Numbered from the whole stretch's first letter, positions 2,414 through 63,100 are shown. The stretch is 63,464 nucleotides of DNA, filler included, from Reclinomonas americana ATCC 50394 (GCA_048213135.1; 8 parts of 3 records of this genome joined end to end with filler, not necessarily neighbours in it); one strand, 5' to 3'. Notes: generated by a model not told the origin, from the letters alone. Numbers and translations are program-made.

Positions 2414-4387
2414 GCTCTGCATCAACCTACAACCATTGCGCTCACAAGTGCGCCACCGCAACGCACTCGTACGCCGCGTGGAAACCGTCATGCGCATGTC
2501 GTTTCCACGCAATCAGTACGAGTTATGCAAGCAAGCTCACTCTTGCCCCCCGCTGCTTCCCCCTCCTCATCGTGTGCTTGTTGGTGAGTGCAGTGTGTCG
2601 GTCAAGGTGTTTGGTTCGGCGGCGTCGGGGCTGTGGTTGCGCGACGCCAGTGATGTCGATGCGTGTGTCGTGGTGGAGCCGGTCAGTGAGAGTGTGAAGC
2701 CGTTGTCACCGCGATCGGTGTTGCGCGTGGCGGCGGCGTCGTTGCGGAGGAGTCTGATGGAGAGTGGAGGTGGGGAAAGGGGCAAGGGGGAAAGTGAGGA
2801 GGAATGAGTTGTCTCATTTGCTGTGTATTCATGTCTGCAAGTGACTGTCTGCTTGGCATGTTTGCATCTGTGTCTGACAGTGTCTGCATCTCTGCCTTCC
2901 TCTGTCTTCGTCTGCATCTGTTCTTGTCAATGTCACATGACGGTCAGCTTGTCTGCGTGAATGTTTGCTTGCCGCATGTCTGCATCTCTGCGTGCCTCCG
3001 TCTGCATCTATGGCTGCCTGTGATGCGTGTTGGTTGGCGTGCCCCTCTCTGCAGTGTCTGCTTGTCTGCATGAATATCTGCGCGCCCACATCTTTGCCTG
3101 TCCGTGTCTGTGTGCAAACATGGCTTTCCTTATTGAATTCCTCTGTTTCTGCACGTTTGCATCTTTGCCCGTCTGCACTGTTTGCATGTCTCCCTGTCTC
3201 TCTGTAGCTGTCTCTCTCTCTCTCTCTTCTCTCTTCTCTCTCTCTCTCTCCATCGCTCACCATGTTCGCCTGGCAGAGCGGTTTCGTGGCATGCAAATGG
3301 TCCTGCGAGCGCGAGTGCCCATTATCAAGTTTGCTCACCCCGAAAGGTGCCTTTCCATGTCTGTTGCTTTCCTGGCTGTGTCATTGCAGCGCCTGACCTT
3401 TTTCATGCAGTGGTCTCACGTGCGATCTGTGTGCGAATAATCAACTTGCTGAGGTGTGCGACTTGGGGTTTCAGGAAGAAACAAAACACTGATTCACCTT
3501 TGCTTGGTATCGCAGCACAATACGCGACTAGTAGCCGCCTACCTGGGAATCGACGTGCGCGCAAAACAACTGGCCACAGTGGTTCGTGTCTCCTCTTGCA
3601 GACTGTGCTGAAGATTCATCAATTCACCCTCGCACACGTGCAGGTGAAGCACTGGGCCCGACAGCGTGGCATCAACAAACCCTCCGAAGGCAGCCTATCG
3701 TCCTGTGCGTCTCTCGCCACCCTGTCACCATCCCCTGCTCCTCCTGCTCACGTGCCGCACCCGCAGATGCACTGGTACTAATGGTAATCAATTTTCTGCA
3801 ACTACGACCGCATGCGCCCGTGCTGCCGTGCTTGCAGCAAGTGCCGCGCGCCCTCTGGAAGCAGGTACCTCGTGTCTACGTCGACGGCTGGGATTGCACA
3901 TTCATGCACGAGAAGCGACACTGGCGTCGGCTACTGCCGGCCACGCCCAACAACGAGGATGTGGGCGCCTTGCTGATTGAATTCTTTCGCTTCTACGGCA
4001 CTCAAGTCGACGTGCCACGACACGTGATGAGTGTGCGCACCGGCCGCGCGCTGAACGTGGCAGCCGCCAAACCAGAGTGGGTCGGAGACGGCCGCTTCAA
4101 AGTCGAAGACGTTGCGTCCCCTCTCCTCCTTCTCACCAGCACTCACTCACGCACTCACTTCCCCTCGTGCGCAGCCATTCGAGTTGGAACACAATGTGGC
4201 GCGAACAGCGCCAGTGCACAACATTCCTCTGTTGCTCGGCGAATTTGTGCGTGCGTGGAAGGTGCTGGTGGAGACCGGCAGTGTGGACGAGTTGTGCAGA
4301 CCAGCGACCACGGAAGTGCGGGAAATGATGGCGTTGGACCGAATGACAGAGCTCGCAGAGAATCATAGAGACGCCGGCGAATCATGA
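2414..4387 (+). CDS. Cid1/GLD-2-family terminal nucleotidyltransferase, probably a TUTase (5' partial, ~7 introns)
   Basis: Spliced motifs VKVFGSAASGL..SDVD, ARVPIIKF, CDLCANNQLAEHNTRL, VKHWARQRGINKPSEGSLSSYAL, GALLIEFFRFYG, VEDPFELEHNVAR; the His in EHNV matches the UTP-selecting His of Cid1. Confidence 0.88.
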
Positions 4388-4459
4388 AACAACTATAACA
4401 ATGCGGCTTGATGACTGTACATTTTTCTCTCTCTCTTAAACAACAGATAACAGTGCTCG

Positions 4460-6590: not shown

Positions 6591-13667
<7,077 letters not shown>

Positions 13668-16800: not shown

Positions 16801-19120
16801 GGGGAATAGAAGAGAGAGGGTACGCACCATCCACCATCTCACTCTGCTCCACGATAATGATGAAAATGGCGTGGCTGCGCGACGAAATCTCGTTCATCTT
16901 GGTGGCGCCAGTGGCGCGCACACTCGCGCCGCGCTCCATGAGGGTATAGATTTCGCTGCTGCTGCGCACGACCCACTGCACGCCACCATTTCGTCAAATC
17001 AAGGTCGGCGCGGGGTGGGGAAGAGGTGAAAGGCAACGCACCTCAGAAAGATCCTCGACAAACACGCCCTTCTTCTTGTCTTCGCGGATTTGCAGGTTCT
17101 TGCGCTCCGGCTTCAGCAAATCGCTGATGCTCTCGTTGTAGATTTGCAGGTACGAGGCGCGCACAAGGAACTTGTTTTTGGAGTTGGTGCAGTGTTGAAT
17201 GTCTGTGCAGGGCGATGGTGTGGGTACGTGACGGAGAGAGAAGAAGGGGGCAGGCGACGACGCAACAGCTGAAAATGTCCTCGGTGGCGTGCGGAATGAT
17301 ACCGCGCTGCTCTCGTGGAATGCGCTCCGACGCCGAAAAACTGCGCATAAAAAGAGAGAATGAGTGGTCTGGGTGTCGTGCATCTGTCGTCGTCGCCGGC
17401 ATACGCACCCCTCCATTGTGTACGTCTTGCCGGTACCCGTCTGTCCGTACGCAATAATGGTGGCGTTGTAGCCCTGCAGTGTCGACACGACCACCGGCTT
17501 GGCGGTGTTCTCGTACACGGTCTGTGTCGAAGAGAAGGGTGAAGGATGAGCAAGAAAAGAAAGTGATTCATCTTTCTCCCTGCCCGACGCACCTCCTGCC
17601 GCGAATCCTGATCGTACACATGATCAAACGTGAACGAGTGCGTGTTGTAGAGCCCTTCGTAGCCCGCATCCGAGACCCCCGGATCGAGCGCCGCCGGATT
17701 CTCCGTAATGGTGATTGCACGGCACACGCCATCGTCACCCGCTTGCTCGCATCGCGTCACGCACACGAAGGGTTTCGGTCCGTTCAGCTCGCGCTCCAGT
17801 GGGGGGCGCACGCGGACCACCACCTGTTCGGAGGAAAAGGGGAGGAAGGGGAAACGAAGGGGGAAAGGGGAGTGAGCGACGGACTTGCACGGTTGGATGG
17901 CTTCCCAAGAGAGAGAGAGAGAGAGAGACAGGTGTTGACTCCTGCCTCTGTAGAGCTTGATATAAGACAGGCTATCTCGTGTTGCTCTCGAAACAACGTG
18001 CAAACAGACAGTCAGAGAGGGCGAATGAGAGACAGTGAGAGGCAGAAATAGAGGTGTCTGACTCCTCGCGTTCCCTGCCTCTGCAGCGGATCTTGCTGAT
18101 CGACTGCCTCCCACATCTGAACAGGCTGCTGAAGGACTCACTCGCTCTTCCCTGTTTCTTGCCAGCCCCTCGTGGATCGCTCACACATTGCAGCTCGCAG
18201 TCAGAGAACCGGAGTGCCACAGAGAGAGGAGAGAGGAAAGAGAGAGAGTGAGAGAGAGAGAGAGGCAGAAATAGAGATGTCTTTGTAGCGGATCTTGATA
18301 ATCGACTGCCTGTCCATGTGTCTCACGCTGTTGAACAGGCTGCTGATGGACCCAAACTCTCACTCTTCAATGCCTCTTGCCAGCAACTTGTGGATCTCTC
18401 ACACAGCAGCTCAAGTCAGAGAACAGGAGTGCCACAGAGAGAGAGAGAGGAGGGAGAGAGAGAGAGAGATGCAGAGAGGCCTTGACTCCACGCATTCTCT
18501 GCCTTGAAGAGGAGCTTGCTGGCCGAGTGTGTTGAGAAGGCCTCTCACAGAAGCTCAACAGACAACACCCCTCCCTCTCTCACACACATACACTCTCTCA
18601 CTGTAGACACACACACACCTTGAAGTTATCATTCTCATCTCCGCCCTCCGACGGCTGCTTGGGCGTCTGCACGAGGTGCGCCAGAGACTCCCGTCGCATG
18701 CGAGTCTCATGATCAATCAACTCCACTGTAAATCACACACACCATCATGAGAGACAAAGACACAGAGAGAGAGCACAAGAGAGAGACAGTGTGAGAGTGT
18801 GTGTGTGTATAAAAAGACAGAGAGTGAGAGGAGAGGTCCCGAGTGCGACATGGCCCGATCACAAAAGGCGAAGAGTGAAACGAAGAGTGGCGGTTGTCCA
18901 TGAACACGCGCGCGCGCATTACCTGTCTCTCACACACAGACACACACTCGCTCACACACGCACAGAGAGAGAAGCAGACAGCCTGAGAGAAACAACAAGA
19001 CAACTCCACGCATGATACCAAACATACCACAACACAGACACAGACATAGACGGGCAACACACACACGCACAAACACACAGACACAGAGAGAGAGCAGAGA
19101 GACATACCCCCGACTTCCAT
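13895..19120 (-). CDS. N-terminal motor kinesin with long coiled-coil tail (~14 introns)
   Basis: [30 protein letters not shown] (P-loop), [56 protein letters not shown]; first exon (ATG 19120) is inferred. Confidence 0.93.
17905..18500. repeat. Degenerate ~220-bp tandem repeat in a kinesin intron
   Basis: GGCAGAAATAGAG, GCGGATCTTG..ATCGACTGCCT, GAACAGGCTGCTGA and GGAGTGCCACAGAGAGA each recur about 220 bp apart. Confidence 0.8.
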
Positions 19121-22404: not shown

Positions 22405-25400
22405 TTACTCATTCATGAGATCGTTACACAGTTCGGTAAAGTGCACAAAGAACTTCGTGGTGTCGAGCGGATCGAGACCCTCCACCACCACGTCCAGCAC
22501 GTGCTTGTCGCACACCGATCGAATGTCCACCACGCCGAGCTGCGCAAACAACTCGGTGTACTTTTGCAGTCCATGCGCCGCTAGCCACATGGAGACTGTG
22601 CATGTCGAGGAATCAATTAGCACGGGTGAGACAGAAGAGGGTGCGTGGGGGCGGAGTGCACCTGAAATCTCCTCCAAAAAGAGCACATCCAGGGCGAGGC
22701 AGTCGCCCGACTTGAGGTGCCACACGTCAGCGTCGCAGGAGATGGTCTCAAACGTCAGCTGGCTGACACGCTTGCGGATGCGTGCAATGCACGTGGCGGT
22801 GACACACAAGCTGGCCGACAGATTTCTCCGCAACTCCCACAGCGGGTCGTCGGTCTCGCGCTCCAAGTACACGGTGGCTGGCTCCTGCAAGATTGGGGAG
22901 GGGTGAGACACACACACACACACACAGCTCACGCGCACTCGCTTCCACACAGCCACGCAACTGCATTGCTGATACCGTACAGGTGTACAAAGGCCTCGAG
23001 AAGCACAGGCATGGATCGGGGCATGATAAAGGCAAACGAGGACTGTGCCGGCTCCGGCAGCGCCACGGCCACCTGCGGTCGCCTCCGCCCCTTGCCGTCC
23101 AAGCTGCCGGCCGAGGACGACGACTTGAGGGTGGGTGGTGTGAAGAGCGACAGTGACGACGTTGGCGGCATGAGACCCTGCGCGCGGGCAATCGGCGACG
23201 GTGGTACACCCGGCTTGAATGGCCGCAGACTGCCGGCTTGATTCAGCACGGCGTCGTGGAACACAGTCACGGTGTACTTAGTGCCCATGCGCCACGGCAC
23301 ACTCGGCACGAATGTCAGGCACATCTGCTCGGCATTCATGTCCACTTTGCCGTCCACTGGTGCGCCGTCGGGCTCCTCGACCACCTGTGCATGTGTGTCA
23401 CCCGAATGAGGATCGTCATGGAGAAACACAGAGAGGCGGCAGATGGGAAAACGCACTCTCAGCACGCGGTTCAGCGCAATGACTTGCGGCACAATCGATC
23501 TTGAGCTGAGAAAGCGACGGAACCATATGGAGACCGATTCCGACGGGAGGAACATTCTGCGGCGTTTGCAAGACAATGTGAGCAGCAAATTCACGCATCA
23601 CCAACAAAACAGCTTCGCAACTTAGGCTCATCGTCGCCCACACCCGGAGCCACCTTGAAAATGCGCGGGTGATCTTCTTCCGAAACTGGTGGTAGTGCGC
23701 TCTCTGGTGACATCAAATCGCCGCTGTCTTCCGCCTCTCTCCGCCTCGACTCCTTCTCCGCCAGGATGCTGCGCATCTTGTTCACGCGCTCCGAAAACAC
23801 AGTCGTGCTGTGCTCCTGATCGCTGTCGTCGGTGGGCGAGCTGCTGTTGAAATCCTCGTCGTCTTCGTCGCTGTCAAAACTGTCGTCACTGTCGTCGCTA
23901 TCGTCGCTGTCGTCGCTGTGGACCAGCTCCCCGTCAGCATCCCCATCGCCCTCTACCGTCACTCGAATGCCGCCAAATGGCATTCGCTTCCCATCCGACA
24001 CCTCCGTCTCCATGAACACGTGACCTCCTGACGACCCTCCTCCTCCTCCCACGTCTCCATTGGCGTAGCCGTTGCCATTGTGACCGTTGCCGTTGCCGGC
24101 GGGAGGTGGATCCGCAGAGGAGCCCACCGAGTTGGCGTCGGACGAGGGTGCGGTCTTGAGTTGCAGCTTGAAGTTGGAGGAGGAGGATGACGACGATGAC
24201 GATGACGATAACAAGGACGTGTCGTCGTTGGCGGCGGAGGGCGATCGAGACACGGCAAGCGTGCGCTGCTGCGGCAAACTTACTGTTGGCGTCTGCGACA
24301 CCGATGCCGACGAGAACGCATTCGCTTGCTCCTTGTCGGTGACAAATGGTGACGGGGGCGGCAGTTCGGGCGCCGACGGTCCCACCGCCTCGAAGGGATT
24401 GTAGGCGCCATGAACCTTGATCTGCAGTCCAAAATTCTTCGGCGACGACGAGCTGTGGTGGCAAGAAGAGGTCAGCTGGTATGTCAGAAGAATTGTCAAT
24501 GACAGGAGAGGCAACGCAACGGTGAATGCCGTGATTCGACCACAATCAGATCGCCTGGTGAAAAGCCGCACTCCACGGCCGTCACCGTGTCGGGACAGTT
24601 GTCGGTCGAGTACAAGGCGCCTGTGTGGTTGCGGCGGGTATGCGTGAGTCTGTGTGTAGAGCAGCAGAGCGTGTCTCCAAAATTCAACATACCTCCGAGA
24701 CGAATGCACATTTTGGCGACGGGCGCACTCAGGTGGCGCGAGGCAATTCTTCTCAACTCACCCTACACGACACACACGACACCGTCAGCTGCGGTGCAAT
24801 AGCAGACCACCTTCCCTCTCCCAATCTCACCATGGTCATGGTCTCAATCGGTGGCGAGTGGAAGCTGGCGGTACCCGTGGTCGGCAACTGCAACCGAATG
24901 GTGCGACGCGGATTGTAGTCCAGTATCGACTGGTACCCCACCTGCACCTGGTGCAACATTTGGTCCTCCTGCACGAGCCCGTCGAAGCGGTAGTGCTCCG
25001 CCGGAATGTCTGTCGCACTCGTTAGCAAACAATACAGAGACAGACACACTCTCTCTCTCCCTCGCAACTCTTCGACGTCTCAATGAGCGCCTTCAGCTCG
25101 GAAATCTTGAGCGTCGGCATCGCGTCCATGTCAAACTCCTCGTGCACCACCTGCCGCGCACGCACCACCACCGCTCGCACGCGCACTCGATACCGAAACA
25201 TGCCCTCGGGCGACGGAAAGTACACGCGCAGCGTGGCGCCTTCACGCAACCCTGTCGACTCGATCGTGGCGGTGGCGCGTGATGAGGCCTCTGTGTAAAG
25301 GAGGGAGTGAGGCGGGGAAGGAGAGAGGGAAGGGGAAAATGGGGAAGAGAGGGGGCTCGCACCAATGTAATCTGCGGTATTGCTCCACAACACCGCGCCG

Positions 25401-26500: not shown

Positions 26501-26603
26501 TCCNNNNNNNNNNNNNNNNNNNNNNNNNNNNNNNNNNNNNNNNNNNNTTAATTAATTAANNNNNNNNNNNNNNNNNNNNNNNNNNNNNNNNNNNNNNNNN
26601 NNN

Positions 26604-31248: not shown

Positions 31249-31364
31249 CGGACACATGCATGACAAAACGCCAAGTTTACCTCCACCACAACCATCTCCT
31301 GCAGCGCAGCGGCCAACAAGCACGCCGCAAACAGCGCACACAGTAGCTTTCCCGTGCGAGACAT
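30070..31364 (-). CDS. Secreted beta-rich (possibly beta-propeller) protein of unknown function; exact 3' end uncertain
   Basis: Signal peptide MSRTGKLLCALFAACLLAAALQ, ~820-nt open exon with motifs such as GMVVDYDTQEVYGL and N-glycosylation sequons. Confidence 0.65.
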
Positions 31365-35785: not shown

Positions 35786-35904
35786 NNNNNNNNNNNNNNN
35801 NNNNNNNNNNNNNNNNNNNNNNNNNNNNNNNNNNNNNNNNNNNNNNNNNNNNNNNNNNNNNNNNGGAATAGGGAAAGGGAAAGACTATAACATCGCGATT
35901 ATTC

Positions 35905-41790: not shown

Positions 41791-41830
<40 letters not shown>

Positions 41831-42639: not shown

Positions 42640-43774
42640 ATGAGCCATAGTTGTCCTCTTCATCGGCACGGTGAGAAGAGAGAGATGCGAAGCACACCTT
42701 CTTCCTCCTCTTCGTCGTACTCGCATCTTGGTCCCTCGCCTACTCGTCTCTTGACACGCATTCTGGTCACGTTGAGCGTTGCTGCTGTGCTGCTCACTGC
42801 TCTCGCCGCCTATTACGCTATCGTGCTGCAGCAGTCACCAAAGGAAGATCACAAGACAAGTGTAAACACAATGAGCGCAGCAGGAGAAGCAAGTGGCAGC
42901 AGTGGTACTGGTCCCACCATCCTTGAGATCTCATGGGAGCGCTTCCAGGCGGAGGTGAGTGTGCGCGTGCTGCACATCTGCACATCTGCAGATGTCTCAC
43001 TCTTTTTTGTTTTGCACGCGCCCAGTGCTATCAACTGGGCAAGGTCATTCTGAGGCACATTGAGCAGCGTGGTATCCGCCTGCGTGGCATTGTGGCGGTT
43101 GCTCGTGGCGGTCTCGTCCCCGCGGTGAGTGACGAGATCCGCTCTTATTCACAGTGATCATGCAGAATGATCAATGTTGACTGTGTGAGTGGGATTGATG
43201 CAGGCGCTGCTCAGCCAGACCATGGACATTCGACTGGTCGATACTCTGTTTCGTGCTTTGTGTGTGTGTTTGTCGCCATCGTTGAAGGCGCGTTTGTTAC
43301 TGACAACCAATTTGTACCAGTTGTGTCCGCTCATACAGCGACAGCCATCAGCGTGCGGAGATTGAGGTGCTGAAGACGGTGGCGGATCTGGAGAATGGAG
43401 GCGAAGGCCTGTTGGTTGTCGATGATCTGGTCGACAGCGGTGAGACGCTGGCGTTGGCACGTCGGCTCTTCCCCAATGCCGTGTTTGCTGTCGTTGCGTG
43501 TGGTATTCTGGTGATATCGGCTCGGCATTTGTTGGCGGCGGCGACTGAGCAGTCTTTGTGTGTGCTTGTATGTGTAGGTGTACGCCAAGCCGGCGGGTGA
43601 GCACACGGTCGATGTGTATGCGACGCGCATGGCACAGGAGACGTGGATTGTGTTCCCCTGGTTTGTCGACATGGGGGCTGTGTGTTCTCGTGAACGATGC
43701 CTGACATGTTGTTCTCCTGCGACAGGGAGAAGACAAATGACGAGCTGGACGCCAAGGTCGACGCACGCGACTAG
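42640..43774 (+). CDS. gpt: Xanthine-guanine phosphoribosyltransferase of bacterial Gpt type, 5 introns, possible N-terminal membrane anchor
   Basis: [66 protein letters not shown], colinear with E. coli Gpt motifs. Confidence 0.88.
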
Positions 43775-43924: not shown

Positions 43925-45786
43925 CTACTCCTGAGGAGCAGCTGCACTCTCCACTCCCGCCATGCCTTCGTCCTCGTCGTCACTCTCCTCCTCCTGCTCG
44001 CGCTTCACCGTCGCCGCACCCTCCTCCTGGGCAGCCACGCGCAGATCCTCCGGCACCAGAGCGTGCTGCCAGCCGCTCTCCTCGCACAGCCAGCTGGCCT
44101 CCAACTCAAAGTCCTTGTCTTTTTCGTCGTGCACGCGATGCAAACTGTTAAGAGGAGCAGGGTGAGATGGCAGCGATAGACAACGGAAGGTGGAGTGACA
44201 CACACGCAACATGGTGGACAGCAACACCAGGGCCTGACGGCATGAGAGCTCCTGCAGATTGAGCTTTTCGATTTCTGTCTTGGCGGCGTTCTTGCCCTTG
44301 CCAATGGCCACACCAAAGTAGCCCTGCACGACACAGCAATTGAGTTTGCCAGTGCTCACACCGGGTGTGTCAAAACGTGGAGACGCAACATAGGCCACGC
44401 CTGACGGCTCCACCAGGTACAGGCTCGGGCCGGCGCGCTCGTCGTGCGTCGCCAGCAACACCGAGCAGCCAAACGGCCGCACACTCCAGTACAGGGTGTA
44501 GGCGTGCACGAACGAGGCCAGTCTGTCGCACATGACGGCGCCGGGAATGGGGCTCTTGAAGGTCTGCAGGTAGTTGGCGGCCTCAGCGCGCGCCGTGACC
44601 ATCAATTGCCGTGCGTCGGGCAGCAGGCCGGCAGTGGCCTGTGAAGCAGGTGAGTTTGTGGATGACGAAAAGGGTGCGTGTGGATGTGAAAGCAGTGCCG
44701 CACCGCGCCGACATGTCGGTCCACGTGGAAAATGCGACGATTGGAGCCGTGGACAAGCATCTTGCTGACGACAAACTTCTCCACCACCATCACAATGCCG
44801 TCACGGCATCGCACGCCAATGGCCGTGCTGTGAGGGAGATCGGCGAGTGAGTCGACGGGGGAGGTGGGGAAGGGCAGAAAAGGAGACGCAAAAGACTCAC
44901 CCAGCATGGTCGACGGCCTTGCAGGCGTAATCCACCTGGACATGAACAGTGTGAGCGCGATGAATCTCAATGACGAGCACAGGACTGCTCGAATGAAAAG
45001 CAAGTGACGGAAAGAATGCACGATCGTCTCAACAGGACAGGAGCTCTTCAAAGGTGACTGCCAGTGACTGCATGGATGAGACGGGCAAACGTCGCAGCAA
45101 GGGCTGTGCGTCTCAACTCACAAGAAAAAAAGAAACATCTTGCAGCACGAACGGAGAGTATGCACTTCCCATCACAAGAGGAACTGCGTGTCTCTGCTGA
45201 GAGGAAACACGAAACATCTTGCTGCACGAATGGAGAGCATGTACACACTAATGAGCTGCGCTGCGTCTCTCCTAGTTACGGCCAAGACAAGAAGCATGCT
45301 CGACATCAGAACACGAGCTGCGCGTCTCTGCTCAGGAGAAAACCGAGAACGTGTGCACACTACAAAGGCAGAGAGGGTGCACTCCACAATACAACAGGAG
45401 CTGCACATCTCTCAAGTGCTCAAAAGAAGAGTGCACAGGAAGCACGAACGACATCAGAGCACGAGCTGTGCGTCTCTGCTCATTGCTCGAAAGACGAGAA
45501 ACTGAGCGCAAAGTACACAAGCAGAGAGGATGCACTCCGCATCACAACAGCAGCTGTGCGCGTCAGCTCACAGGTGAGAACGCGACACAGGATGCAATTC
45601 CCCTTCTTTCCCCCACACTCTCTCTCCACAAAAAATCAATCACACAAGAGACATAGCGTATCGCCTTCTCCCTTTTCATCATGCTCACCTGATGGATCTT
45701 GCCCTCGGGTGAGTAAGTTGTCACCGCCAAATCGTACTGCGCAAGAAAGTAAACAAATTTGAGCACACAAACACACATGCATTCAT
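43925..45786 (-). CDS. PSMA3: 20S proteasome subunit alpha-7 (PSMA3/Pre10)
   Basis: [83 protein letters not shown], acidic tail. Confidence 0.95.
45060..45570. repeat. Intronic degenerate tandem repeat in PSMA3
   Basis: GAGCTG(C/T)GCGTCTCTGCT and GCAGAGAGG..GCACTCC variants recur at least five times. Confidence 0.8.
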
Positions 45787-46287: not shown

Positions 46288-49200
46288 ATGTCATTCACTC
46301 GGGAGCGCGTCGTAGTGTGCGACAATGGCACAGGAGTTGCGTTCCTCCTCACCCTCTCTCACCCTCTCATGTGCTGTGTGGGTGTCACACGTGCAAAGTT
46401 TGTCGGGTCATTGCCATCGGGCATGTCAACTCTCACACGCACTTGCTCACACACACGCTTTTGTTGCACTGTGCTGCGGCTGTGCACGCTGAGTTGCTCC
46501 GCACACGCGCGCATGTGTCTGTGTGTCTGCGTGTTTTGTGTTTGCGCAAAGAGCATGTCTGAACTCCCGCACGCGCGCTCACTCGCTCACTCTCTCTCTC
46601 TCTCTGTGTCTCTTTGCGTGTGTGTCTCGCATGCAGTTTGTCAAGTGCGGCTTTGCCGGTGAGTCTCCTTCATTCCTTCATGCAACTCACACTTGTAAAA
46701 AGTTCCGATGATGACCTTTTTTCCCGCTCCCTCTCTCCCTCTCTCTCTTGTTTTGCAGGCGACAACTTCCCGCGCTCAGTGTTCCCTGCCATGGTCAGTA
46801 ATGCATTCTCCTGTCTCTCTCCTTGAGAATGGTCGACTCATACATTGTTATTTTGCAGGTCGGTCGGCCAATTCTCAGATACGAGGAGGATGTGGCGGGC
46901 TCACAAATGAAGGTCGGCTGGCTTCTGGTGTTCTTGTTGCTTTGTGTTTGTCTGGAGATACTCATTGCGTATTTTACAGGACATTATGGTGGGCGATGAG
47001 GCTGCACAATACCGCCAGAGCTTGGAGGTGTCGTACCCCGTCGATCATGCCGTCATCAAGAACTGGTTTGTGCCATCACACGCACACATGTACATCTCCT
47101 CTGTCTCGAGAATTCAATGACACGCACTTCCCAACTCCTCTATTCGACACACGGCACTCTCTTTGTGTCTTGTCTGACTTTTCCCGCTCTCGCACGGTCT
47201 TTCGTTCCTTCTTTCCGTTCTAGCATCTGGGGCTCAGTCGCCTGTCGTTCTCTCGCGCGACATCAAGTGCTTGTTCTCTTTCCCGCCTATCTCTATCCCC
47301 GACCTCATCCTTTGCGCGCCATTGTCGTTCTTTCCTTTCTGCCATAGCATCAGTGCCTTGTGCGGCTGTCTCATACTTGAGAGTTCAACGTTAAGAGCTC
47401 TTTCTTCTCCCGCCGCCCTTTTCCTTTGCGCCCTTGTCGTGACATCAAGGGCTCCTCTTCTTGTGTGCCTTCTTTCTCTCTCTCTCTCTCTCTCTNNNNN
47501 NNNNNNNNNNNNNNNNNNNNNNNNNNNNNNNNNNNNNNNNNNNNNNNNNNNNNNNNNNNNNNNNNNNNNNNNNNNNNNNNNNNNNNNNNNNNNNNNNNNN
47601 NNNNNNNNNNNNNNNNNNNNNNNNNNNNNNNNNNNNNNNNNNNNNNNNNNNNNNNNNNNNNNNNNNNNNNNNNNNNNNNNNNNNNNNNNNNNNNNNNNNN
47701 NNNNNNNNNNNNNNNNNNNNNNNNNNNNNNNNNNNNNNNNNNNNNNNNNNNNNNNNNNNNNNNNNNNNNNNNNNNNNNNNNNNNNNNNNNNNNNNNNNNN
47801 NNNNNNNNNNNNNNNNNNNNNNNNNNNNNNNNNNNNNNNNNNNNNNNNNNNNNNNNNNNNNNNNNNNNNNNNNNNNNNNNNNNNNNNNNNNNNNNNNNNN
47901 NNNNNNNNNNNNNNNNNNNNNNNNNNNNNNNNNNNNNNNNNNNNNNNNNNNNNNNNNNNNNNNNNNNNNNNNNNNNNNNNNNNNNNNNNNNNNNNNNNNN
48001 NNNNNNNNNNNNNNNNNNNNNNNNNNNNNNNNNNNNNNNNNNNNNNNNNNNNNNNNNNNNNNNNNNNNNNNNNNNNNNNNNNNNNNNNNNNNNNNNNNNN
48101 NNNNNNNNNNNNNNNNNNNNNNNNNNNNNNNNNNNNNNNNNNNNNNNNNNNNNNNNNNNNNNNNNNNNNNNNNNNNNNNNNNNNNNNNNNNNNNNNNNNN
48201 NNNNNNNNNNNNNNNNNNNNNNNNNNNNNNNNNNNNNNNNNNNNNNNNNNNNNNNNNNNNNNNNNNNNNNNNNNNNNNNNNNNNNNNCGTCGCCTACCTC
48301 CCCTCTTTCCCCTTCCCCTTTCCTCTTTCCCCTTCCCCTTTCCTCTTTCCCCTTTCCCCCTTCCCCTTCCCCCCTTTCCCCTCCCCCCTTCCCCCTTTTC
48401 CCTTCCCCCTTCCCCTTTCCCCCTTTCCCCTCTCTCTGTGCATCCCGGAAAACATGATCGTGGGCCTTTGCGTGTTCGCATGTGCGAGGCTTGAGCTACA
48501 GCGTCGATCATATCTTCAGCCGGCAGATTAATAGTTTACTATCGGAATCAAAACATCGTGCCACTACTTGGCTGCCATGCCACCGCGTGACGCGACACCT
48601 GTCTCTTCCGGACATTTTTCTATTCTCTCCTCCCACTCTTCCATCTTTCTCTTTCTCCCTCCCACCCTCTGTGTGTCATCACTGACACTGTTTTGCATGT
48701 CATGTTGTTGTTGTGTTTGCGTTGTCGTGTTTTTTTGACACAGGGTCGACATGGAGCACCTGTGGAACTACACATTCAACGAGAAGCTGAAGATCAAGCC
48801 GCACGAGTGCCGCATTCTGCTGACGGAGCCGCCACTGAACCCACTGGCCAACCGCAAGAAAATGCTCACCACCATGTTCGACACGTACGGTTTCCAAGGC
48901 GTCAATGTGCAAATTCAGGCCGTGCTCACACTATACGCACAAGGTCTGTTTTCTCCCCCCTTCTCCACTCTTTTTTATTTCGCTCCCGCTCACTCTTTCC
49001 CTTTGTGCTGCCACCAGGCTTGGTGACGGGTGTGGTCGTCGACTCTGGCGATGGTGTGACACACATTGTGCCAGTGTACGAGGGCTACTCAATCCCCGCC
49101 GCCGTGCGCCGTATTGATTTGGCCGGCCGCGACATTACCGAGTACCTGATCAAGCTGCTGTCACTGCGCGGCTACTCGTTCAACCGCACCGCCGACTTTG

Positions 49201-51911: not shown

Positions 51912-52489
51912 TGTGTCAAAAAAACACGACATCGCAAACACCACAACAACATGACACGCACAACAGCGTCAGCTATGCACAAAGGGTGGGAGGGAGGGAG
52001 GATGATAGATGGATAGATGGAAGAGTGGGAGGAGAGAATAGAAAAATGTCCGGAAGAGACAGGTGTCGCGTCACGCGGTGGCATGGCAGCCAAGTAGTGG
52101 CACGATGTTTTGATTCCGATAGTAAACTATTAATCTGCCGGCTGAAGATATGATCGACGCTGTAGCTCAAGCCTCGCACATGCGAACACGCAAAGGCCCA
52201 CGATCATGTTTTCCGGGATGCACAGAGAGNNNNNNNNNNNNNNNNNNNNNNNNNNNNNNNNNNNNNNNNNNNNTTAATTAATTAANNNNNNNNNNNNNNN
52301 NNNNNNNNNNNNNNNNNNNNNNNNNNNNNGCAGCACAACTATTCTTTGCCTCTCTCTCACACATGCACCTGCAGGCTTCCGAGTCATCACTGAAAAACCT
52401 GCTGGCAGGGTCCAGTTGCGACTTGTCACCCTCTCTCTCCCTTCTCCCCCCCACCACACACACTCTCTCACACTCACACACACACAGGC

Positions 52490-55400
52490 ATGCGCGGCAA
52501 GTCGACCTCGACCTCCTCCACCTCCGCATCCACAGGTGCCAACAAGAGCGGCGACTGGGACGAGGCCGCTCTTCGCGCCATGTTGCCAATGGGATTCGGC
52601 AGCAGTGCATCGCGTGGTCGCGTTCCCTCTCCCACCAAGAAGAAGAACAAGAACAAGAAGAACAAGAAGCAGAGGAGAGATGCAGTGCGTGCGCATGTCT
52701 CTCTCTCTCTCTCATTGCATGCATGCATTGATGTTGGTGTTTGTTGTTGCGTAGAGTGATGAGGAGGAGGATGAGGATGAAGAGGAGGAGGTGGTAGTGC
52801 GAGGCCGAGGCAATGGGAGGGGCGGTGACGACGACGAGGACGAGGAGGAGAGTGGCTTGCGGGATGTGTCGCGCCATGCTGCCAATGTGCGCAAGTCGGC
52901 GATGGTTACCACGGTGCAGCCGGGCAAGGTTCGCGCGCGCGTGTGTGTTGTTCTCGATGGCGTGCTGCTCACGAGGCTGGACAGCAGAGTGCGCAGGCGC
53001 GGCGTCGCGAGGCCAAGGCGGAAGAGGAGGATGAGGACGATATGGTCGGGCCTCCGCGACCGCCCAGCAAGGTAACGAGGCTGTCTCATTGTTGCTGTCG
53101 TCGTCGCGCGCTGAATGCTGTTGAGTGGCAGGTGGAGAGCGCTGCTGCGGCTGAGCGAGCGGCGCTGGCGGCCATGGGAGTCGAGTTGAGCGACGATGAC
53201 GACGACGATGACGATGAGGAGGGTGGTGAAGCGCCGGCGCCCGAGGCAGTGGCGGTCAGCTCCGGTCCTTACTATGCCAGCAGCAATACGGCAATGTCGG
53301 CTGCGATGGCCGCCATGGGCGTGGAGTTGAGCGATGATGAGGACGACGACGATGATGACAGCGATGCAGCGATGGGACCGCCAAAGCCGCGCCCCGATGA
53401 CGGTGCTGGCAGGCGAGCACCGGGACCCGAGCGTGTGACGGTAATTCAATGTGAAGGAGAAGAGAGGGAGAGATAGCGATTGGACGTGCGTTTCTCACTC
53501 TGGCACGCAGGATGCGGAGAACCCGTACGCTCTGCCCATCACTCACGAGATTGAACTGCGTGGACACACCAGGGTGCGTCTGCTCCATATCCGCCAGCTA
53601 CTCGACCACGTCACCGCATCTCACAGACTGCACGTTGTCGCAGGGCATCACTGCGCTGTCGCTGGAGCCGAGTGGATCGCGTGTGGTGACCGGCTCCACC
53701 GACTGCAATCTCAATTTCTACGATTTCAATGGCCTGAACGCGGAACACACACCGTTCCGCTCCCTCGACGAGCCGTGTGGATCGTATTCGGTGCGCTTCC
53801 GCACTTGTTGACCACCTCTCCTCTCCTCTTCTCCTTACCTGTCTTTGATTTTGTGCAGTTCAATCAAATCGAGTTCAGCCACCACGGTGACATGTTTATC
53901 GCGGCTCCGGACTTTAATCGGCCGCGCCTGTTTGATCGCGATGGTCATCAGCTGTGCGTAATCAATCGTGTTTTTGCGTTGGTGCGATGCACGTGGCTCA
54001 CAATGTCTCATTGCAGCGCTGAGTTCATCAAGGGCGACATGTACATCACGGACATGAACCTGACGAAGTTGCGCCCCTTCTTCCCTTCTCATGCCTCCTG
54101 TTTTTCTCTTTGCCTGACACTGCCGTGCACAGTGGCCATGTGGCGCTGGTCACTGGAACGGCGTGGCATCCGCTGGATCGCTCGATCGTGCTGACCTCTT
54201 CCATTGATGGCACTGTTCGGTAAGTTGCCTTGCAACACGCAGATCATGTACCCTTCCTTCTGTCTCACCCTGCCCAGCATCTGGGACATCAACACGGTGA
54301 CCGAGAAGCAGCTGCATGTGATCAAGTACAAGGATGCACAGAACAAGCGCGCAGCAGTCACGTCGATTGACATTGACGCGGACGGAACCACGATTCTCAC
54401 CGGCTGCAACGATGGTTCCATTCAGCTGTACGCCCTGAAGGCGCCGTACAACCGACCAACAGCAGTGCGTCTGACTGTTCGTGGACAGGGCGTAGCGGTT
54501 GCTGACGTGATGCTCGTCACGCAGATGGCCCGCGGACATCACCGAGCCGGTCACGAAGTGAGCTGCGTCAAATTCTCCAAGGACGGCCGCACCATTATCT
54601 CGCGCGGCACCGATGACTCACTGCGAGGTTGGTTCTGCAATTTTTCCCGAGTCGTTGATAAGCCGCACGTCTGCTGACTCCTTGTGCAGTGTGGGACGCC
54701 AGACAGTTGCGCAAGCCGACCAACGAGTTCGAGGATTTGCCGAATCGCTTCTCGTACATGGACTGCGTCTTCAGCCCCGACTCCAAGTTCATTCTCACTG
54801 GTGCGCGCACGTGGACCATGGACTCATCTCGTTGTGTGAACTGACTGAGAGACACAGGCACCACGTCGGAGCGTGACCAACCGAATGGCCAGCTGTGCTT
54901 TGTTCTCACCAGCACCATGGAGATTGTCGCCAAGATTGGTATGTGCGTTTGCTTCTCGATGATCTCTGCTGCATCTCTCACACGCATACTCCATCTGCAG
55001 CCGTGCCCGACGCGTCTGTGCAGCGCATCCGCTGGCACCCCGTCCTCAATCAGGTAATCGCCCTCCCGTTACCTCTCCTCCATTCTATTGCTGACCGCGA
55101 AACATGCACGCGCAGCTGATTGTCGGCTGCTCCGATTGCAAGACACACGTCTTCTACGACCCGCAGTTTAGCACCAAGGGCGCCCTGCTGTCGATCAAGT
55201 CGCGCAAGCGCCGTGCCGATCCGTCCGACCTGCAGCTCACTCCGTTGCGTCACGCAATCTCGGTCAAGCATGGTAATATCGTCATTGCTCACTGCGATGC
55301 GTTCACAGGCACATTATCACACCGCACGCCCTGCCGATGTTCAAGACTGGGCCGTCGAAGAAGCGCCAGATGCTCAAGGATCGCCAGGATCCCATCAAGT

Positions 55401-55829
55401 CGCACAAGCCGGAGGCTCCCGTCTTTGTTGCGTTCCCTACTGACATTCTTGCCACTCATCCTCTGTCTGACTCCTCTTTCTCCGTGCGCAGGGCAACAAG
55501 GGTGCCGGTGGTCGTCTGGTGTCGTCGACCCTCACACAACATCTCGTCAAGATGGGTGGCGTTGTCAAGAACACCATGGGCGAGGAGGATCCGCGCGAGG
55601 CGTTGCTCAAGTACGCCGACAAGGCCAAGAGTTGCGCCGCCTGTCGCTCCTTCCCGTCCCTTGTGATGCTCACTGTTTTTCGCACATCGCAGGTCAACCA
55701 ATGTTCATGGGCGACATGTGGAAAGGCGAAAAGTACGACTACGATCGGCTGGCGTACGAACAGAAGCAAGAGGAGGAGCGTCAAGCCAAACTCGACAAGG
55801 CCGCCAAGGCCGCTCGAGAGCGCAAGTAA
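52490..55829 (+). CDS. WDR70: WD repeat protein 70 (5' end uncertain)
   Basis: AMLPMGFG, LPITHEIELRGHTR, EFIKGDMYITDMNLT, IITPHALPMFK, DPIKSHKPEAP, EEDPREALLKYA. Confidence 0.92.
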
Positions 55830-55886: not shown

Positions 55887-57081
55887 TCACAAGATCGTGC
55901 ACTTGCAGTTTTCGCCGCTGCTACCACCACCAGCACCAGCACCGCTGGGAGCCGCCGGCCGCTCTGGCTGCGGAATGGGTGGTATGCCCTCACGTACTCC
56001 AATGTGTGCCATGACACCGTAGAGAATGGGTTCGTTGACGCGCAGACCGGACAGTGCCGAGCATTCCACATAGGTGATCTGTTGCGCGTGGTGGTCAGAG
56101 ACAAACACGACTGGAGTCGGGTCACGAGCCACGCACCGCGCCAATATCTCGTGCCGTCTTATGTGCCGCCGCCGCAGTCACCAGCGAACGCGCCGACGAG
56201 TTGACGGACGGCACTCGCATATCAGCCTGCGTGTCACACCAGAGTCAGAACAGGCAAAAGAAACACGACAAACACGACCACCCGACAGACACTAGTCTGC
56301 ACGACACTGATGAACACAAAGTCGTCCGCTTCACCTTGGTGCCAACCAGCACAATCGTTGCGTTCCCCGGGCAGCTAGCGCGCACTTCAGGCATCCACTG
56401 CACCCACCGATGAATATCAAGCAAAAGGTCACGATCCGCGCGCGCACGCCCACGACAACTTACCAAGTGTTCGACGTTCTCCAGCGATCTCTCGCTGTCC
56501 ACGGAGAAGCACACCAGTACCACATTGGCCGTACGTAACGCGATCAGCCTGCGCCACCCATCGCGCACGCATCAGACAACAAAAACGGCGATGGAGTGAG
56601 ATGCGGACAGAACACTGACCGCAATTGATCGAGGTTCTCTTGCCCTGCGTGCATCGTGTGTGTCAGTCGGGAGGGCGAGAGACAGGGAGAAGGAGAGAAA
56701 GCTCGCACCTGCAGTGTCCCACAACACGAGGCTGATGCTGCGGTCGCCGACGTGCACAGCCGACTCGTAATGACTGCACAACACAATGAGAGAGCGCGTT
56801 GTGATGAGAGTCAGAGTGCGCACGCAACTCGACAGTCGTCGGCACTGTATCTACAGGAAAGTGGCCACTGGAGGCGCGCACCAGCAAGCACGTCTTGCCT
56901 GCACACATGTACAGTGTTGAGTGGAGTGCGTAACAGAACACTGTCGGAGAGAGAGGGCGCACTTACCGACTGCGCCATCGCCCACAACCACCACTGTGTA
57001 AGGGCATAGAGTGTGAGCGACACGTGCAAGACAGACAAGCACACGCACACACAGACCGTTGAGTGTTCCCACGTGCGCCAT
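55887..57081 (-). CDS. Rho/Rac-family small GTPase, divergent (8 introns)
   Basis: VVVGDGAVGKT, LWDTAGQE, LVCFSV, LVGTKADMR, YVECSAL, CAAX box CTIL. Confidence 0.92.
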
Positions 57082-57167: not shown

Positions 57168-58005
57168 ATGAGTGACACCGACAGCGAGCCGATCCGCCTC
57201 CTCTTCGTCGCCTTTGACAAGAACGGCGACAAGAAGCTGGATGCAGCCGAAGTCGTCACGTGAGTCTCACTCTCTCTCTTTCTTTCCGTCACTCTCTCAC
57301 ACTGGCTTGCATCACTGCCTCGTTGCAGCTTCTTCCAGAGCCTGGGCGCCAAGATCGAGGATGGACCCGAGTTTCGCGCCGCCTTTGATGCCATCGACAC
57401 GGACAAGAACGGCTCACTGAGGTCACTCACCACCACCTTATCTCTCTTCTTCTCCCTGGCCTCACTCTGACGCGTTTGCAGTTTCGAGGAGTTCATGGCC
57501 GTGGCATCGACGCTGTTCAACCCGGAAGACCTGCAGAATGTGGCCAAAGTGCGCACGGTGTTTGAGCGGTTTGACTTGGACCACGACGAGTGCATTTCGA
57601 GAAGCGAGGTGACTCGCATGTTTGAAGTTGCGTGCTGCATGCAAGGTCGTAGTGGGAGGGGAGTGCGACGGAGAGTGCTGATTGGTGAGGCAGGAGCTGG
57701 AGGGTCGTGCCATGACGGAGGAGGAACTGGAGGGATTCATGAGACAGGCCAAGGACAGCTCGCAGAAGCCTGCTGACGAGGCGGCTCCGGCCAGCACTGG
57801 TGACAGTGGCGATGCGGGAAGTGCCAGTAGTGCATCGGTTGATGTGGTGACGTGGGCCGGTGCGTGCGCTGCTGCTGCGGCTTGTGTGATTTTATTCCGA
57901 CAAATGATGATGTGTGTGTTGTGTTTCGCAGAGTTTTTGCAGACGGCACGCAAGACGTTTGATCAGTTCGAGACGTACCACCGCGCCAAAGGCGTTCTCG
58001 AATGA
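57168..58005 (+). CDS. Calmodulin-like EF-hand protein
   Basis: FDKNGDKKLDAAEV, IDTDKNGSLSFEEF, FDLDHDECISRSEV; the fourth hand is interrupted by an Ala/Ser/Gly/Asp insert. Confidence 0.88.
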
Positions 58006-58960: not shown

Positions 58961-59062
58961 TTNNNNNNNNNNNNNNNNNNNNNNNNNNNNNNNNNNNNNN
59001 NNNNNNTTAATTAATTAANNNNNNNNNNNNNNNNNNNNNNNNNNNNNNNNNNNNNNNNNNNN

Positions 59063-60080: not shown

Positions 60081-60158
60081 CTCCTCCACACACAGCGCGC
60101 GCGCGTGAGTAATCCGACACGATTTGGTGTGCGTGTGTGTGTGTGTGCGGTGCAGCGA

Positions 60159-63100
60159 ATGTCGGGCGAGGAGACAAACCGGCCGACGTCGCGCGGGCCA
60201 CTGACACCCGGCACCGGCGGTCGCGTGTTGATGAGCACACGGCGCACAGGTTGTGTATTGTGTGTGTGTGTGTTTGTCGAAGAACTGTCGCGCCCACATG
60301 TGCACACACACGCACGCAACACAGGTCGAACGGCCACACATCTGGGTCAGTTCGACACAAGATTACAGCAGCGTCTGTCACATCTCAAGTATGCAGCCGC
60401 ATTCGAGCCGTCGTACATTCAAGAGGCTGAACCTGCACCAGTTCGTCCTCGCAACAACTTTGCTGGTGGTGGGTAGAGGCTCCCTCCTCCTCCTCCCTCC
60501 TCCAGAGTGTCGCACACCAAAATTAACACCTCGTGTGTGTACAGGCTCCAAGCCGGCCTCATTCCCCACCTCCAAAGGCAAAATGTTTGAGCACGACGAA
60601 AGCGACGAGGATGCTGCCGCCAAGGCAGCTGCCAGCAAGAAAAAGAAGGCGCGGAAAATGACTGCCAACGAGATGGTGGCCGAGGTGGAAAGCACACTGC
60701 GGCCGTACCGCCTCGGAGAAGTGATTACCACCATTCCCAGCGAGTTCAAGTTGCGTTGCTGCGTTCTTACACATAGACGGTCGCCACCACCAGCTTGAAC
60801 TCAATCGCTGCCGTGGCACAGAGACCGCATGGCCATGTGGTTCGCGGTGTCGGTCATTCTCTTCGTTCTCCTGCTCCTCATCACCATCTACGTCATGGTG
60901 CTGTGGGCGAGTGGTGCACTGTTTTCCGTGCCAACGCAAAAGATCCTCCTCACCGGCAATGTGCGTTTCCGCGAGTGTTGTGCCTTTTCTTTTGAGTCGA
61001 TGTGCTGAACCACCAGACCACCTTGCAGCCACAATCTCAAGCCCATGTCGACGAACTCACCGGTCGCATCGGCCTCTCTGCACCCAAGGCGATGACTGCC
61101 GCTGTCGACGTGTCGACGACCACGAGCCGCAACACTCATGTGATCATGGCGGCTCTGAATTCGACCGCGGTCCACAGTATCGATCTGGCGCTCTTGGGCT
61201 ACGGGAGTGCCCGCCACGCCAACATCCTCGTGTATCAGCAGCCGTACATACTGTTGCGTGTGATTCTCTTAATAGGTTTGCTTTCCTCTCACGGGACTCA
61301 CAACTTCTGTATCAGTGGCCCACCAACCAACACCACTCGAACTAGCGGCGCAGCCAGCGGGGGCCGCGTGCTGCTGCAGTCGACCACGGCCAACACACAG
61401 CAGTCGCTGCCGGGACTGGACGCCTTTCTCGGTCGCCCATCGGTCGTCGCCACCACCACCACCACCACCACTACAACAAAAGTCACAAAACTGAAGTGCC
61501 CGGGGTGTGTTCGCCATCCTCTTCCACCGCAGATGCAAATCAACGAGCAAGTGGACTTTCAGTCGTCGGCCTACTTTGATAGCATGGCGGTGGTGCAGAA
61601 GTTTACCATGTACTCCAATGGCACACAAGCATTCCGCTTCAGCAATGATGGTGGCGTTGTGACGCTGACGTCACCGGTGCGAGAAGTGGTGAGAATCGAG
61701 GGCCTCTCACTCAAGTTCCTCGGTGCGTATGTGTTCAAAGCTAATCATAAGTGGTTCGTCACGCCCAACACACGGCTGCGCTGCAGGTGACTTTCTGCTG
61801 CAACGCGATGCATCGTCGGACAGTCTCGCGGTGCAGAACTTTCTGACGTACGAGCTCACCTCCATCTCTTCCGGTGGTGGACAGGGCTGGGGGTTGCGTT
61901 TCCATTGATTGATGCCACAGTATACAACTATCGTCATCTTACTCGGTGTTTTCTCGTTGCAGCATTGTCGGCGGCAACGGCGTGGCCAAGAAGACATCCA
62001 TTCTCAAGTTCCTCAGCGTGAAGAACAAGTTTCGCGATCAGTTCGAAGACGTGTTCTCGGCCGTCGACAAGTACTCTGTGTCTCTCCGCAACTCGGTTGA
62101 CGGCCTGGAGCTGCTGGTTTGTCAGGGGCGCATGCGAGAGCACCACAGCTGTACTCGGCGCTGACGATACTTGCATATCAAAACACACACAGATGTCTCT
62201 GCGAGCAGCGTCACTGCCGACAATCTGGTCGTGGACCTCTCAAGCGAAGCAGTGGAGTCTGTTTACGGCCAACCTATCATTGCGCAACAATGGTGGATGT
62301 GCAGCCAGTGAGGTTCGTGTGTTCGTGAGGAAACTCCTGCAATCAGTCGGTGGTGAGTGTTGACACCGAGAGCAACGACAGGTGGCCGAGTTCCAGGCGC
62401 GCTCGCCCAACGATCTTGAGCAGTGCAACGACGTCAGTTTCCAGGCCAACGGCGTCAGCTACCACAACTCCACTCTTCTTGAGCTGTCCACCATCCGATT
62501 GCACGCACCGCTGCTGGTTCTCGACGCTGCGAACTCGACGTGGACACAGGATGGTGTGCCATCATCATCATCGCACACACCGCTTACCTCGTACGGCACT
62601 CATTCTTCCAACGCAATGTTCGCAGTGTTTCAAAACACCACCGACACCGTGCGGTACAAGTTGCAGTCGGACCTGGACGGCTTTCCAATCATTGTCGACG
62701 CCGGCATCGAGGAGCACACTCTGGATCTGCAGATGGACATGAACAGTCTGACGATGGTGCACGACTTCAATGTGACGTTCGGCTCGCATCGCAGCAACAA
62801 TGGACCGGCGGTGCTTCCAGTTGCGCTGCATGCACTCCTGCAACATCGTCAATTTGTTGTGAACCTGAACTTGCAACAACACTGTGAACAGTTCAAGTAC
62901 TTCACCACTGGCGGATACAAGTTGACACAGGCGGGTAGTCTCGACTCGTTCAACATACGCAGTACCGCTATCGATAGTTGGACGACGACGTACAATCGAG
63001 GCGCCACGTCCTCACATGTGGTGCGATTGTGGTACTTTGCTGCCGGTCACTTTATCCCGCTCGCTTCTTACCTCGTTGGTGCAGTTGTCTTTTGTCACGG

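Follow-up and report, generated by a model that had tools for sequence, protein, structure and literature searches.

Gene content of the window

A 63,464-base stretch of the genome of Reclinomonas americana ATCC 50394 (GCA_048213135.1), hereafter the window, carries densely packed eukaryotic genes on both strands, and among the introns that interrupt them is a group beginning with GTTGCG, mostly GTTGCGT, whose 5' splice sites (donors) are almost certainly real and form a class separate from the ordinary donors of the same genes. The window is about 53% G+C and includes 3,873 N, and all counts given below come from this one 63-kb sample. Pfam matches on open frames identify a Cid1-type nucleotidyltransferase, a RasGEF, a kinesin, a trypsin-like protease, an S10 carboxypeptidase, an fn3-domain protein, Vps39, a proteasome alpha subunit, Arp2, two actin-family genes, a WD40 protein, a Rho GTPase and an EF-hand protein. 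Seven blocks of the form N44-TTAATTAATTAA-N44, at 5263-5362, 12400-12499, 26504-26603, 28404-28503, 31579-31678, 52230-52329 and 58963-59062, are what we take to be artificial contig linkers with stops in all six frames; the window is therefore a draft assembly of joined contigs in which adjacent segments are possibly not true neighbours. The carboxypeptidase gene nonetheless runs in order across two of these blocks.

An earlier note on this DNA had listed 28 introns that start with GTTGCG. The hexamer is present on the strand given at all 28 coordinates, and a T follows it, at intron position +7, at 22 of the 28, the same count as in that note.

A census of splice donors

Gene models were built with a dynamic-programming gene finder of our own, whose score combines intron length and composition, acceptor and branch site with codon usage, the last of these seeded from stretches that match Pfam. 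Its donor-blind form requires nothing of a donor but GT, so that positions from +3 onward have no influence on the predictions, and the donor-aware form is the same gene finder with a donor model added. We call an intron high-confidence when it is 45-130 nt long and both flanking exons are at least 45 nt long and have a positive coding score. Both forms predict too many small exons in untranslated and intergenic sequence; about 100 introns are secure and about 200 are predicted, totals that bracket the 150-160 estimated in the earlier note.

Although blind to everything after GT, the donor-blind model returned GTTGCG as its commonest donor hexamer, both in a first run (22 of 206 introns) and with the composition term capped (22 of 210), and it is the donor of 15 of the 91 high-confidence introns. 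On both strands, the window contains 79 copies of GTTGCG, that is, 1.0% of its 7,878 GT sites, and against this background, the enrichment among the 210 donor-blind donors is extreme (binomial p = 6e-16). More to the point, an independent-position matrix derived from the same donors predicts 1.28 GTTGCG donors among all 210 and 0.40 among the 91 high-confidence ones, where 22 and 15 were found. A frequency above that of such a matrix was what the earlier note had staked its claim on, and within the window, the claim withstands the comparison: the class is a major one, discrete and not the tail of a single position matrix. The donor-aware model uses GTTGCG in 31 of 208 introns and in 24 of 99 high-confidence ones. 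The class makes up about 16-24% of the introns in the window, in line with the share of about one sixth estimated previously.

The window has 32 copies of the heptamer GTTGCGT: 24 mark donors that had been listed or that we added, two are at sites in a repeat array that we do not trust as introns, and six lie elsewhere; GTTGCG within sense-strand exons was found 10 times, nearly always with C, G or A at +7. All 31 intervals described below begin with GTTGCG and finish with AG, the end of the one at 10172 being tentative.

Of the 28 listed sites, the donor-blind model used 18, with 13 among its high-confidence introns, and the donor-aware model used 25. At seven listed sites (13251, 34554, 43493, 61253, 62820, 29296 and 30287), the donor-blind model took another in-frame GT, and such alternative GTs are present at most sites. 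These choices, along with the draft state of an assembly that contains artificial linkers, are what can be said for the possibility that the sites have been misread, be it because other nearby GTs are the true donors, because an extra T entered GTGCGT by sequencing or assembly error, or because the introns are a mobile family. However, homology favours GTTGCG over the donor-blind choice at 43493 and 29296, the alternative GTs have no motif in common, and seven junctions are exact by homology, two of them at intron positions common to other eukaryotes. An inserted T would also have kept a G as the last base of the exon (-1 G) in about 78% of cases, as against the 0-10% seen, and a G-to-T error at +1 would break the frame at the validated junctions. 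We regard the misread-site readings as scarcely credible and largely refuted.

Sequence context of the GTTGCG donors

The most telling difference between the two kinds of donor lies on the exon side. Among high-confidence donor-blind introns, -1 G precedes 40 of 51 ordinary donors, that is, those with G at +5, as opposed to none of 15 GTTGCG donors (p = 2.9e-8), and in the donor-aware set the figures are 48 of 60 and 2 of 24. Viewed in reverse, again among high-confidence donor-blind introns, GTTGCG is the donor at 15 of 35 junctions that lack -1 G and at none of the 56 that have it. When the 28 listed sites are joined by two that we added in the carboxypeptidase gene, the -1 base is A at 14, T at nine, C at four and G at three of the 30, and the three G are fewer than the 31% G in coding sequence would give (p = 0.0075). 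Local donors without +5 G (GTGCAT, GTAACG and others) mostly retain -1 G.

The preference for A at -1 (14 of 30) resembles that of ordinary donors at -2, and T at +7 (24 of 30) corresponds to ordinary +6, so that the motif is effectively a heptamer. When G/GTGCGT and GTTGCGT are set side by side (the slash marking the exon-intron junction), the description of this donor in the earlier note as the ordinary one displaced by one base holds up well, -1 mirroring ordinary -2 and +7 mirroring ordinary +6. Its companion statement that +5 G is near-invariant in ordinary donors was too strong: +5 G is predominant only, being found in 60 of the 75 high-confidence donors other than GTTGCG.

The displacement is, moreover, confined to one core. 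Donors of the form GTT-N-N-G have GCG in 15 of 16 donor-blind and 24 of 25 donor-aware cases, as against 19 of 51 and 25 of 60 ordinary donors (p = 9e-5 and 2e-6, respectively), which have G at +3 in about 71% and C at +4 in about 47%. Shifted counterparts of GTGAGT, GTACGT, GTATGT and the like are essentially absent among the predicted donors. Intron phases 0, 1 and 2 also differ, at 7, 6 and 11 for GTTGCG introns and 30, 22 and 8 for ordinary ones (p = 0.0055).

Downstream of the donor, by contrast with these differences, the two kinds of intron are alike. The acceptor is RCAG in both; a YTNAY branch motif is found in 18 of 24 GTTGCG introns, at a median of 19.5 nt from the acceptor, and in 57 of 60 ordinary ones, at 19 nt, with CTCAC and CTGAC as the branch motifs of both; median intron length is 67.5 nt and 68 nt, respectively, and base composition is equal. 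Mean local alignment scores of intron interiors are 7.82 for pairs within the GTTGCG class, 7.81 for ordinary pairs and 7.83 for mixed pairs.

Four candidate identities were rejected along the way. A mobile family of introner-like elements was set aside because interiors resemble each other no more within the class (7.82) than across classes (7.83); U12-type introns, because both the GTTGCG donor and the CTCAC/CTGAC branch are unlike the U12 consensus; a second GT at +6/+7 as the true donor, because the frame would be wrong at validated junctions; and sequencing error, which is excluded by the -1 G statistics and the frame at validated junctions.

The exon side bears, too, on the possibility that ordinary U1 pairs normally with the exon and with +1/+2 while one U, at +2 or +3, is bulged and GCGU pairs one step further on. 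Such bulged pairing has been validated experimentally in humans, with 68 predicted and 54 curated sites in Table 3 of PMC4856993, and it would account for both the cleavage at GT and the T at +7. Yet, it expects -1 G to be as frequent as at ordinary donors or more so, and the counts (0 of 15 in the donor-blind set and 3 of 30 overall) are below even the coding background. The depletion of -1 G therefore argues against a bulge at +2/+3, and we consider this register improbable.

Individual GTTGCG introns

Seven junctions are residue-exact by homology or profile: 29296, 29187, 44389, 44210, 43493, 27124 and 26809, the last two of which had not been listed before. Four of these belong to the serine carboxypeptidase gene on the minus strand, an exon of which finds its best homologues at about 60% identity or less. 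The GTTGCGC intron of 80 nt at 29217..29296 and the GTTGCGT intron of 79 nt at 29109..29187 yield GTWGVK/YHYMAVDNP and VDNP/VGTGFSY, both without gaps against five homologues. The two added introns, both GTTGCGT, lie at 27057..27124 (68 nt; YQGQFD-F-QDG) and at 26733..26809 (77 nt; GHLVPM-D-QP, gapless against five homologues), and the codons that they split give a conserved F and D, respectively. In the gene for proteasome alpha-3, also on the minus strand, two GTTGCGT introns of 66 nt, at 44324..44389 and 44145..44210, separate three consecutive exons that run along the solved PSMA3 chains as 77-159, 160-196 and, past a split codon at 197, 198 onward; the first junction thus falls between residues 159 and 160, and the second within 197.

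The seventh exact junction is that of the GTTGCGT intron of 85 nt at 43493..43577 (+), where position 116 of the NCBIfam model NF006613 ends one exon and 117 begins the next. The gene in question (42871-43771, +) matches this model of a bacterial-type xanthine phosphoribosyltransferase and has about five spliceosomal introns inside it; it may be of bacterial origin, with its introns acquired afterwards.

Two further junctions can be read directly. In Arp2, the GTTGCGT donor at 46336 (+) gives the expected protein only with an intron of 301 nt (46336..46636), after which the downstream exons read as Arp2; the Arp2 junction asserted in the earlier note is therefore right, although the intron is not short. 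In the Rho-family GTPase gene on the minus strand, the GTTGCGT intron of 55 nt at 56774..56828 gives ...VPTTVD/HYES..., with the upstream exon aligning to Rac and Rho chains. Spliced at this donor, the protein has 41 residues from the K of the P-loop to the D of DTAG, the standard K16-D57 spacing of the Ras superfamily. Against solved structures, the second Rho exon found weak Rab matches only, and nothing more came from Pfam searches of the short exons with E as high as 10.

A third group consists of introns that the donor-blind model recovers, for the most part with high confidence. The nucleotidyltransferase gene has a high-confidence GTTGCGT intron of 64 nt at 4111..4174 (+), which yields ...KVED/PFELEHNV and has a PAP_assoc Pfam match in its upstream exon. 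The same gene has, at 2522 (+), a GTTATGC donor that is the sole candidate for a shifted donor with a core other than GCG. The kinesin-2-like gene has a high-confidence GTTGCGT intron of 64 nt at 17203..17266 (-), with approximate Pfam support: the match to the Kinesin profile breaks off at 93 and starts again at 115, with the 24-residue exon before the donor in between, the next exon matches KIF3B/C, and a solved-structure search with the 24-residue exon was empty.

In the WD40 gene (+), high-confidence introns lie at 55244..55308 and 55427..55491 (both GTTGCGT, 65 nt) and at 55631..55692 (GTTGCGC, 62 nt), and the donor-blind model also includes 54068..54132 (GTTGCGC, 65 nt), which has WD40 Pfam matches in its flanking exons. 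The first intron of this gene, 52415..52487 (GTTGCGA, 73 nt), is absent from the earlier list and is present at low confidence in both models. A homologue search with the exon at 55307-55429 was empty, and a search of all libraries with the WD40 exon returned only multi-repeat WD40 proteins, none of them over the C-terminal exons; four or five GTTGCG junctions there consequently derive from the gene model alone.

Two genes of no known family are similarly rich in the motif. The one on the plus strand has GTTGCGT introns at 60750..60821 (72 nt; donor-blind, high-confidence) and 61893..61962 (70 nt; donor-blind), together with two that only the donor-aware model adopts, namely, 61253..61315 (GTTGCGT, 63 nt), where in-frame alternatives are present, and 62820..62891 (GTTGCGC, 72 nt). 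The other, on the minus strand, has four high-confidence donor-blind introns, at 22885..22961 (GTTGCGT, 77 nt), 23557..23621 (GTTGCGA, 65 nt), 24453..24520 (GTTGCGT, 68 nt) and 25010..25068 (GTTGCGA, 59 nt); homologues of this gene were not found, and a search with its large exon at 23624-24451 was empty. Several of the sites in genes that lack homologues likewise come from the gene model only. Upstream of a large gene of no known family, units of about 155-160 nt are repeated in a degenerate array at 25600-26503, in which the donor-aware model splices at GTTGCG at 26453, 26400, 25981 and 25845; we do not trust any of these four as introns.

The remaining sites are less secure. In the RasGEF gene (+), the donor-blind model includes the GTTGCGT intron of 64 nt at 12797..12860, with approximate Pfam support in that the profile runs from about 40 through 41, in a split codon, to 42 across the junction. 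The GTTGCGT intron of 74 nt at 13251..13324 is ambiguous, being adopted by the donor-aware model only and having an in-frame GTGTGT 12 nt downstream. The GTTGCGT candidate at 10172..10787 (+) in the RasGEF region, with its tentative end, is in no model; the coding score upstream of it is poor, and only an intron of 616 nt fits. The interval 10172-10787 (+) is a G+T-rich stretch of about 600 nt with (GT)n runs, either a long intron from 10172 or a gap in the gene model. In the fn3-domain gene (+), the GTTGCGT intron of 83 nt at 34554..34636 is donor-aware only, the donor-blind model having chosen GTCATC 21 nt upstream, and the GTTGCGT candidate of 75 nt at 35494..35568, at the end of the gene, is in no model and is plausible by eye: left unspliced, TA/G is a stop, there are a CTGAC branch and a TTGCAG acceptor, and the sequence downstream is open as far as the gap (open reading frame 35546..35890). 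The EF-hand gene has a weakly supported GTTGCGT intron of 67 nt at 57627..57693 (+), which is in the donor-blind model and whose acceptor and branch score poorly; the exon after it found no homologue and nothing meaningful in solved structures. Finally, a GTTGCGT intron of 82 nt at 30206..30287 (-), in a gene of no known family, is donor-aware only.

The statement in the earlier note that removal of such introns restores the reading frame, often within a conserved motif, is thus borne out by the seven exact junctions, the two read directly and the 18 of 28 that the donor-blind model shares, and is weak at 10172, 35494 and 57627.

Old intron positions in proteasome alpha-3

A scan of metagenomes with a PSMA3 exon did not find close relatives, the best identity being 64%, and returned loci of other eukaryotes. 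Twelve of these loci have a phase-0 intron exactly at the position of 44389, after ...SGV-x-x and before G-Y/C-F-G, with the ordinary donors GTAAGT, GTATGT, GTATGA and GTATGC, and a thirteenth (L010) has GTATTG there. At the position of 44210, two loci have a phase-2 intron, also exactly placed, with the donors GTAAGT and GTGCGT. Because these positions are common to distant eukaryotes in which the donors are ordinary, the introns at 44389 and 44210 are old ones with donors that were altered where they stood. In all 12 loci, the exon before the 44389 position ends in C or T, and the missing -1 G at this junction is therefore ancestral.

Other features of the window

The distribution of GTTGCG donors over the genes is not even in appearance: none of the roughly 17 introns predicted in the Vps39 gene (37612-42595, +) has a GTTGCG donor, whereas four other genes carry four each, so that the class may be spread unevenly. 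One Vps39 donor, at 38363 (+), has an extra T after GT (GTTATCCGT) and looks like a U12-type GTATCC start with one T added. The two actin-family genes, at 48702-49881 (+) and 50775-52084 (-), form an inverted pair with the same exon translations, intron positions and donors (GTCTGT, GTGCGC and GTGCGT), and are thus the product of a recent inverted duplication; GTTGCG donors are absent from both. On the minus strand, 31281-31400 and 31848-31960 are a near-identical pair that flanks a contig linker and has a predicted 46-nt intron in common (tcgcGTTTGTCTA...); this duplication probably represents overlapping contig ends or uncollapsed haplotypes.

Recognition of the GTTGCG donors

By the sequence signals described above, the GTTGCG introns are classed as GT-AG introns of the major (U2-type) spliceosome, with the same 3' signals as ordinary introns. 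As for the recognition of their donors, the reading that we favour, while granting it about equal weight for and against, is that one U1 reads GTTGCG(T) in a register shifted by one base. The motif would then be G/GTGCGT read one base out of register, the second G having become T, with TGCGT unchanged and the cut made one base earlier, such that the intron's +1 G would occupy the usual place of the last G of the exon. The heptamer would be a self-contained unit that pairs with the 5' end of U1 in the displaced register; the later contact with U6 would be displaced likewise, and cleavage would stay in front of GT. Having its own stand-in for the exon G, the heptamer would be able to serve junctions at which the exon ends in another base, and the missing -1 G, the preference for A at -1 and the T at +7 all fit a shift of the U1 register. 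There is precedent for the principle: at rare human sites, U1 has been proven to pair in shifted and in bulged registers, and in the shifted one, the intron's +1 G takes the pairing place of the exon's -1 G, as stated in PMC4856993 and PMC9311317.

Several points weigh against a single U1. Duplex energies were calculated by the nearest-neighbour method with a U1 end that was either human-type or invented to suit the local consensus. With the human-type 5' end, GUUGCGU comes to -1.4 kcal/mol, compared with -6.3 for G/GUGCGU and -4.0 for a shifted GUUGAGU, and given such weak pairing, an unmodified ordinary U1 fails to explain a shift that is limited to GCG (15 of 16 versus 19 of 51). A shifted ordinary U1 leaves unexplained the strict GCG core, the near-fixed heptamer and the avoidance of -1 G altogether; indeed, a one-U1 model expects -1 G to be neutral or helpful, and what was found is 3 of 30 against 31% G in coding sequence. 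The evidence, furthermore, comes from DNA sequence and self-made gene models in a single 63-kb window.

It is in the light of these features that a dedicated small nuclear RNA (snRNA) variant has to be weighed, for example, a U1 paralogue fully complementary to GUUGCGU, in which the ordinary C at position 8 would be changed to A, perhaps with a matching change elsewhere. Such a variant would suit a motif that is much stricter than the ordinary donor (GCG is invariant because the class is so defined, and 80% of sites have T at +7), a shift limited to the GCG core and the fact that 24 of the 32 heptamers in the window are donors. With the invented U1 ends, GUUGCGU on the variant end comes to about -11.8 whatever the -1 base, which is stronger than the ordinary donor without -1 G (-9.2) and weaker than the ordinary donor with it (-14.2); these energies, which are a model and not data, reproduce the coupling to -1, and do so best with a second, heptamer-complementary U1. 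Conversely, no Rfam family matched anywhere in the 63,464 bases at the gathering threshold, and so no snRNA gene was seen in the window; no variant U1 is known to us that serves a fifth of the introns of any organism; the variant U1s of humans are minor; and the 5' end of U1 is nearly universally conserved. On balance, a snRNA variant of this kind seems to us rather unlikely.

The same tentative standing goes to what would amount to a two-register code, in which exons that end in -1 G use ordinary donors and other exons use GUUGCGU via a dedicated component in the major spliceosome. That component would most likely be a U1 paralogue complementary to the heptamer, or else a U1/U6 pair with displaced pairing. 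The remainder of the probability falls to a protein factor or something else. Overall, the interpretation offered in the earlier note, a shifted register used as a major class through relaxed or bulged pairing or through dedicated variant snRNAs, is partly supported.

Implications and comparison with known systems

In textbook models, +5 G and the pairing register of U1 and U6 are nearly fixed. About a fifth of the introns described here begin with a shifted donor that has C at +5 and is tightly coupled to the last base of the exon, and among them are introns at ancient positions in genes with housekeeping roles (proteasome, Arp2, kinesin and Rho). The class thereby offers a natural system for the study of how the cleavage site is set when the register moves, of the trade-off between exon-side and intron-side information, and of the division of labour among snRNAs. 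There is a practical side as well, in that gene predictors with one donor matrix would overlook about a fifth of this genome's introns or put them in the wrong place, much as our donor-blind model misplaced seven of 28. Should a dedicated snRNA turn out to be involved, this would be a second, abundant system of 5' splice-site recognition, distinct from the minor spliceosome, and categorically new; in the case of a variant U1, two U1-type recognition systems would operate side by side in the major spliceosome. We found no description of a GTTGCG/GUUGCG donor class in the text of the open-access literature, supplements aside, and a lineage-specific description could exist.

Among the closest parallels to the GTTGCG donors are GUUAAGU and similar atypical 5' splice sites of humans, at which Roca and Krainer (2009) reportedly described a shifted (+1) U1 register. 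As in the donors described here, GU is followed by an extra U and then by the consensus one base late, with cleavage at GU. The human shifted sites are rare, whereas GTTGCG accounts for about 16-24% of the introns in the window; unlike them, GTTGCG has one core (GCG), a near-fixed heptamer and a confinement to junctions without -1 G, and again unlike them, it would pair only weakly with a human-type U1 end.

Human 5' splice sites read in the bulge +2/+3 register, which is said to have been described by Roca et al. in 2012, likewise have one extra nucleotide between GU and the downstream paired block. They are a small category: Table 3 of Tan et al. 2016 (PMC4856993) gives about 4,270 human sites with non-canonical registers in all, of which 54-68 have the bulge at +2/+3, and by that paper, shifted and bulged registers account for between some dozens and some thousands of about 200,000 mammalian sites. 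At the human bulged sites, pairing on the exon side is expected; the GTTGCG class is depleted of -1 G instead.

A second sharp donor motif beside the ordinary one is also a feature of U12-type introns, which are read by dedicated snRNAs and have the consensus RTATCCTT at the donor and a TCCTTRAY branch close to the acceptor. Unlike those of U12-type introns, the GTTGCG donors are not RTATCCTT, and the branch, acceptor, length and composition of their introns are as in ordinary ones.

Finally, two main kinds of 5' splice site, AG//GU and //GURAG, also termed 'left-handed' and 'right-handed', are distinguished in PMC11732430, PMC9803359 and PMC11842720. As described there, these classes show the same kind of trade-off between exon and intron information as is seen here, with GTTGCGT as an extreme intron-side donor. 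However, AG//GU and //GURAG, so described, keep to one register, whereas the consensus of GTTGCGT is displaced by one base, with C at +5.

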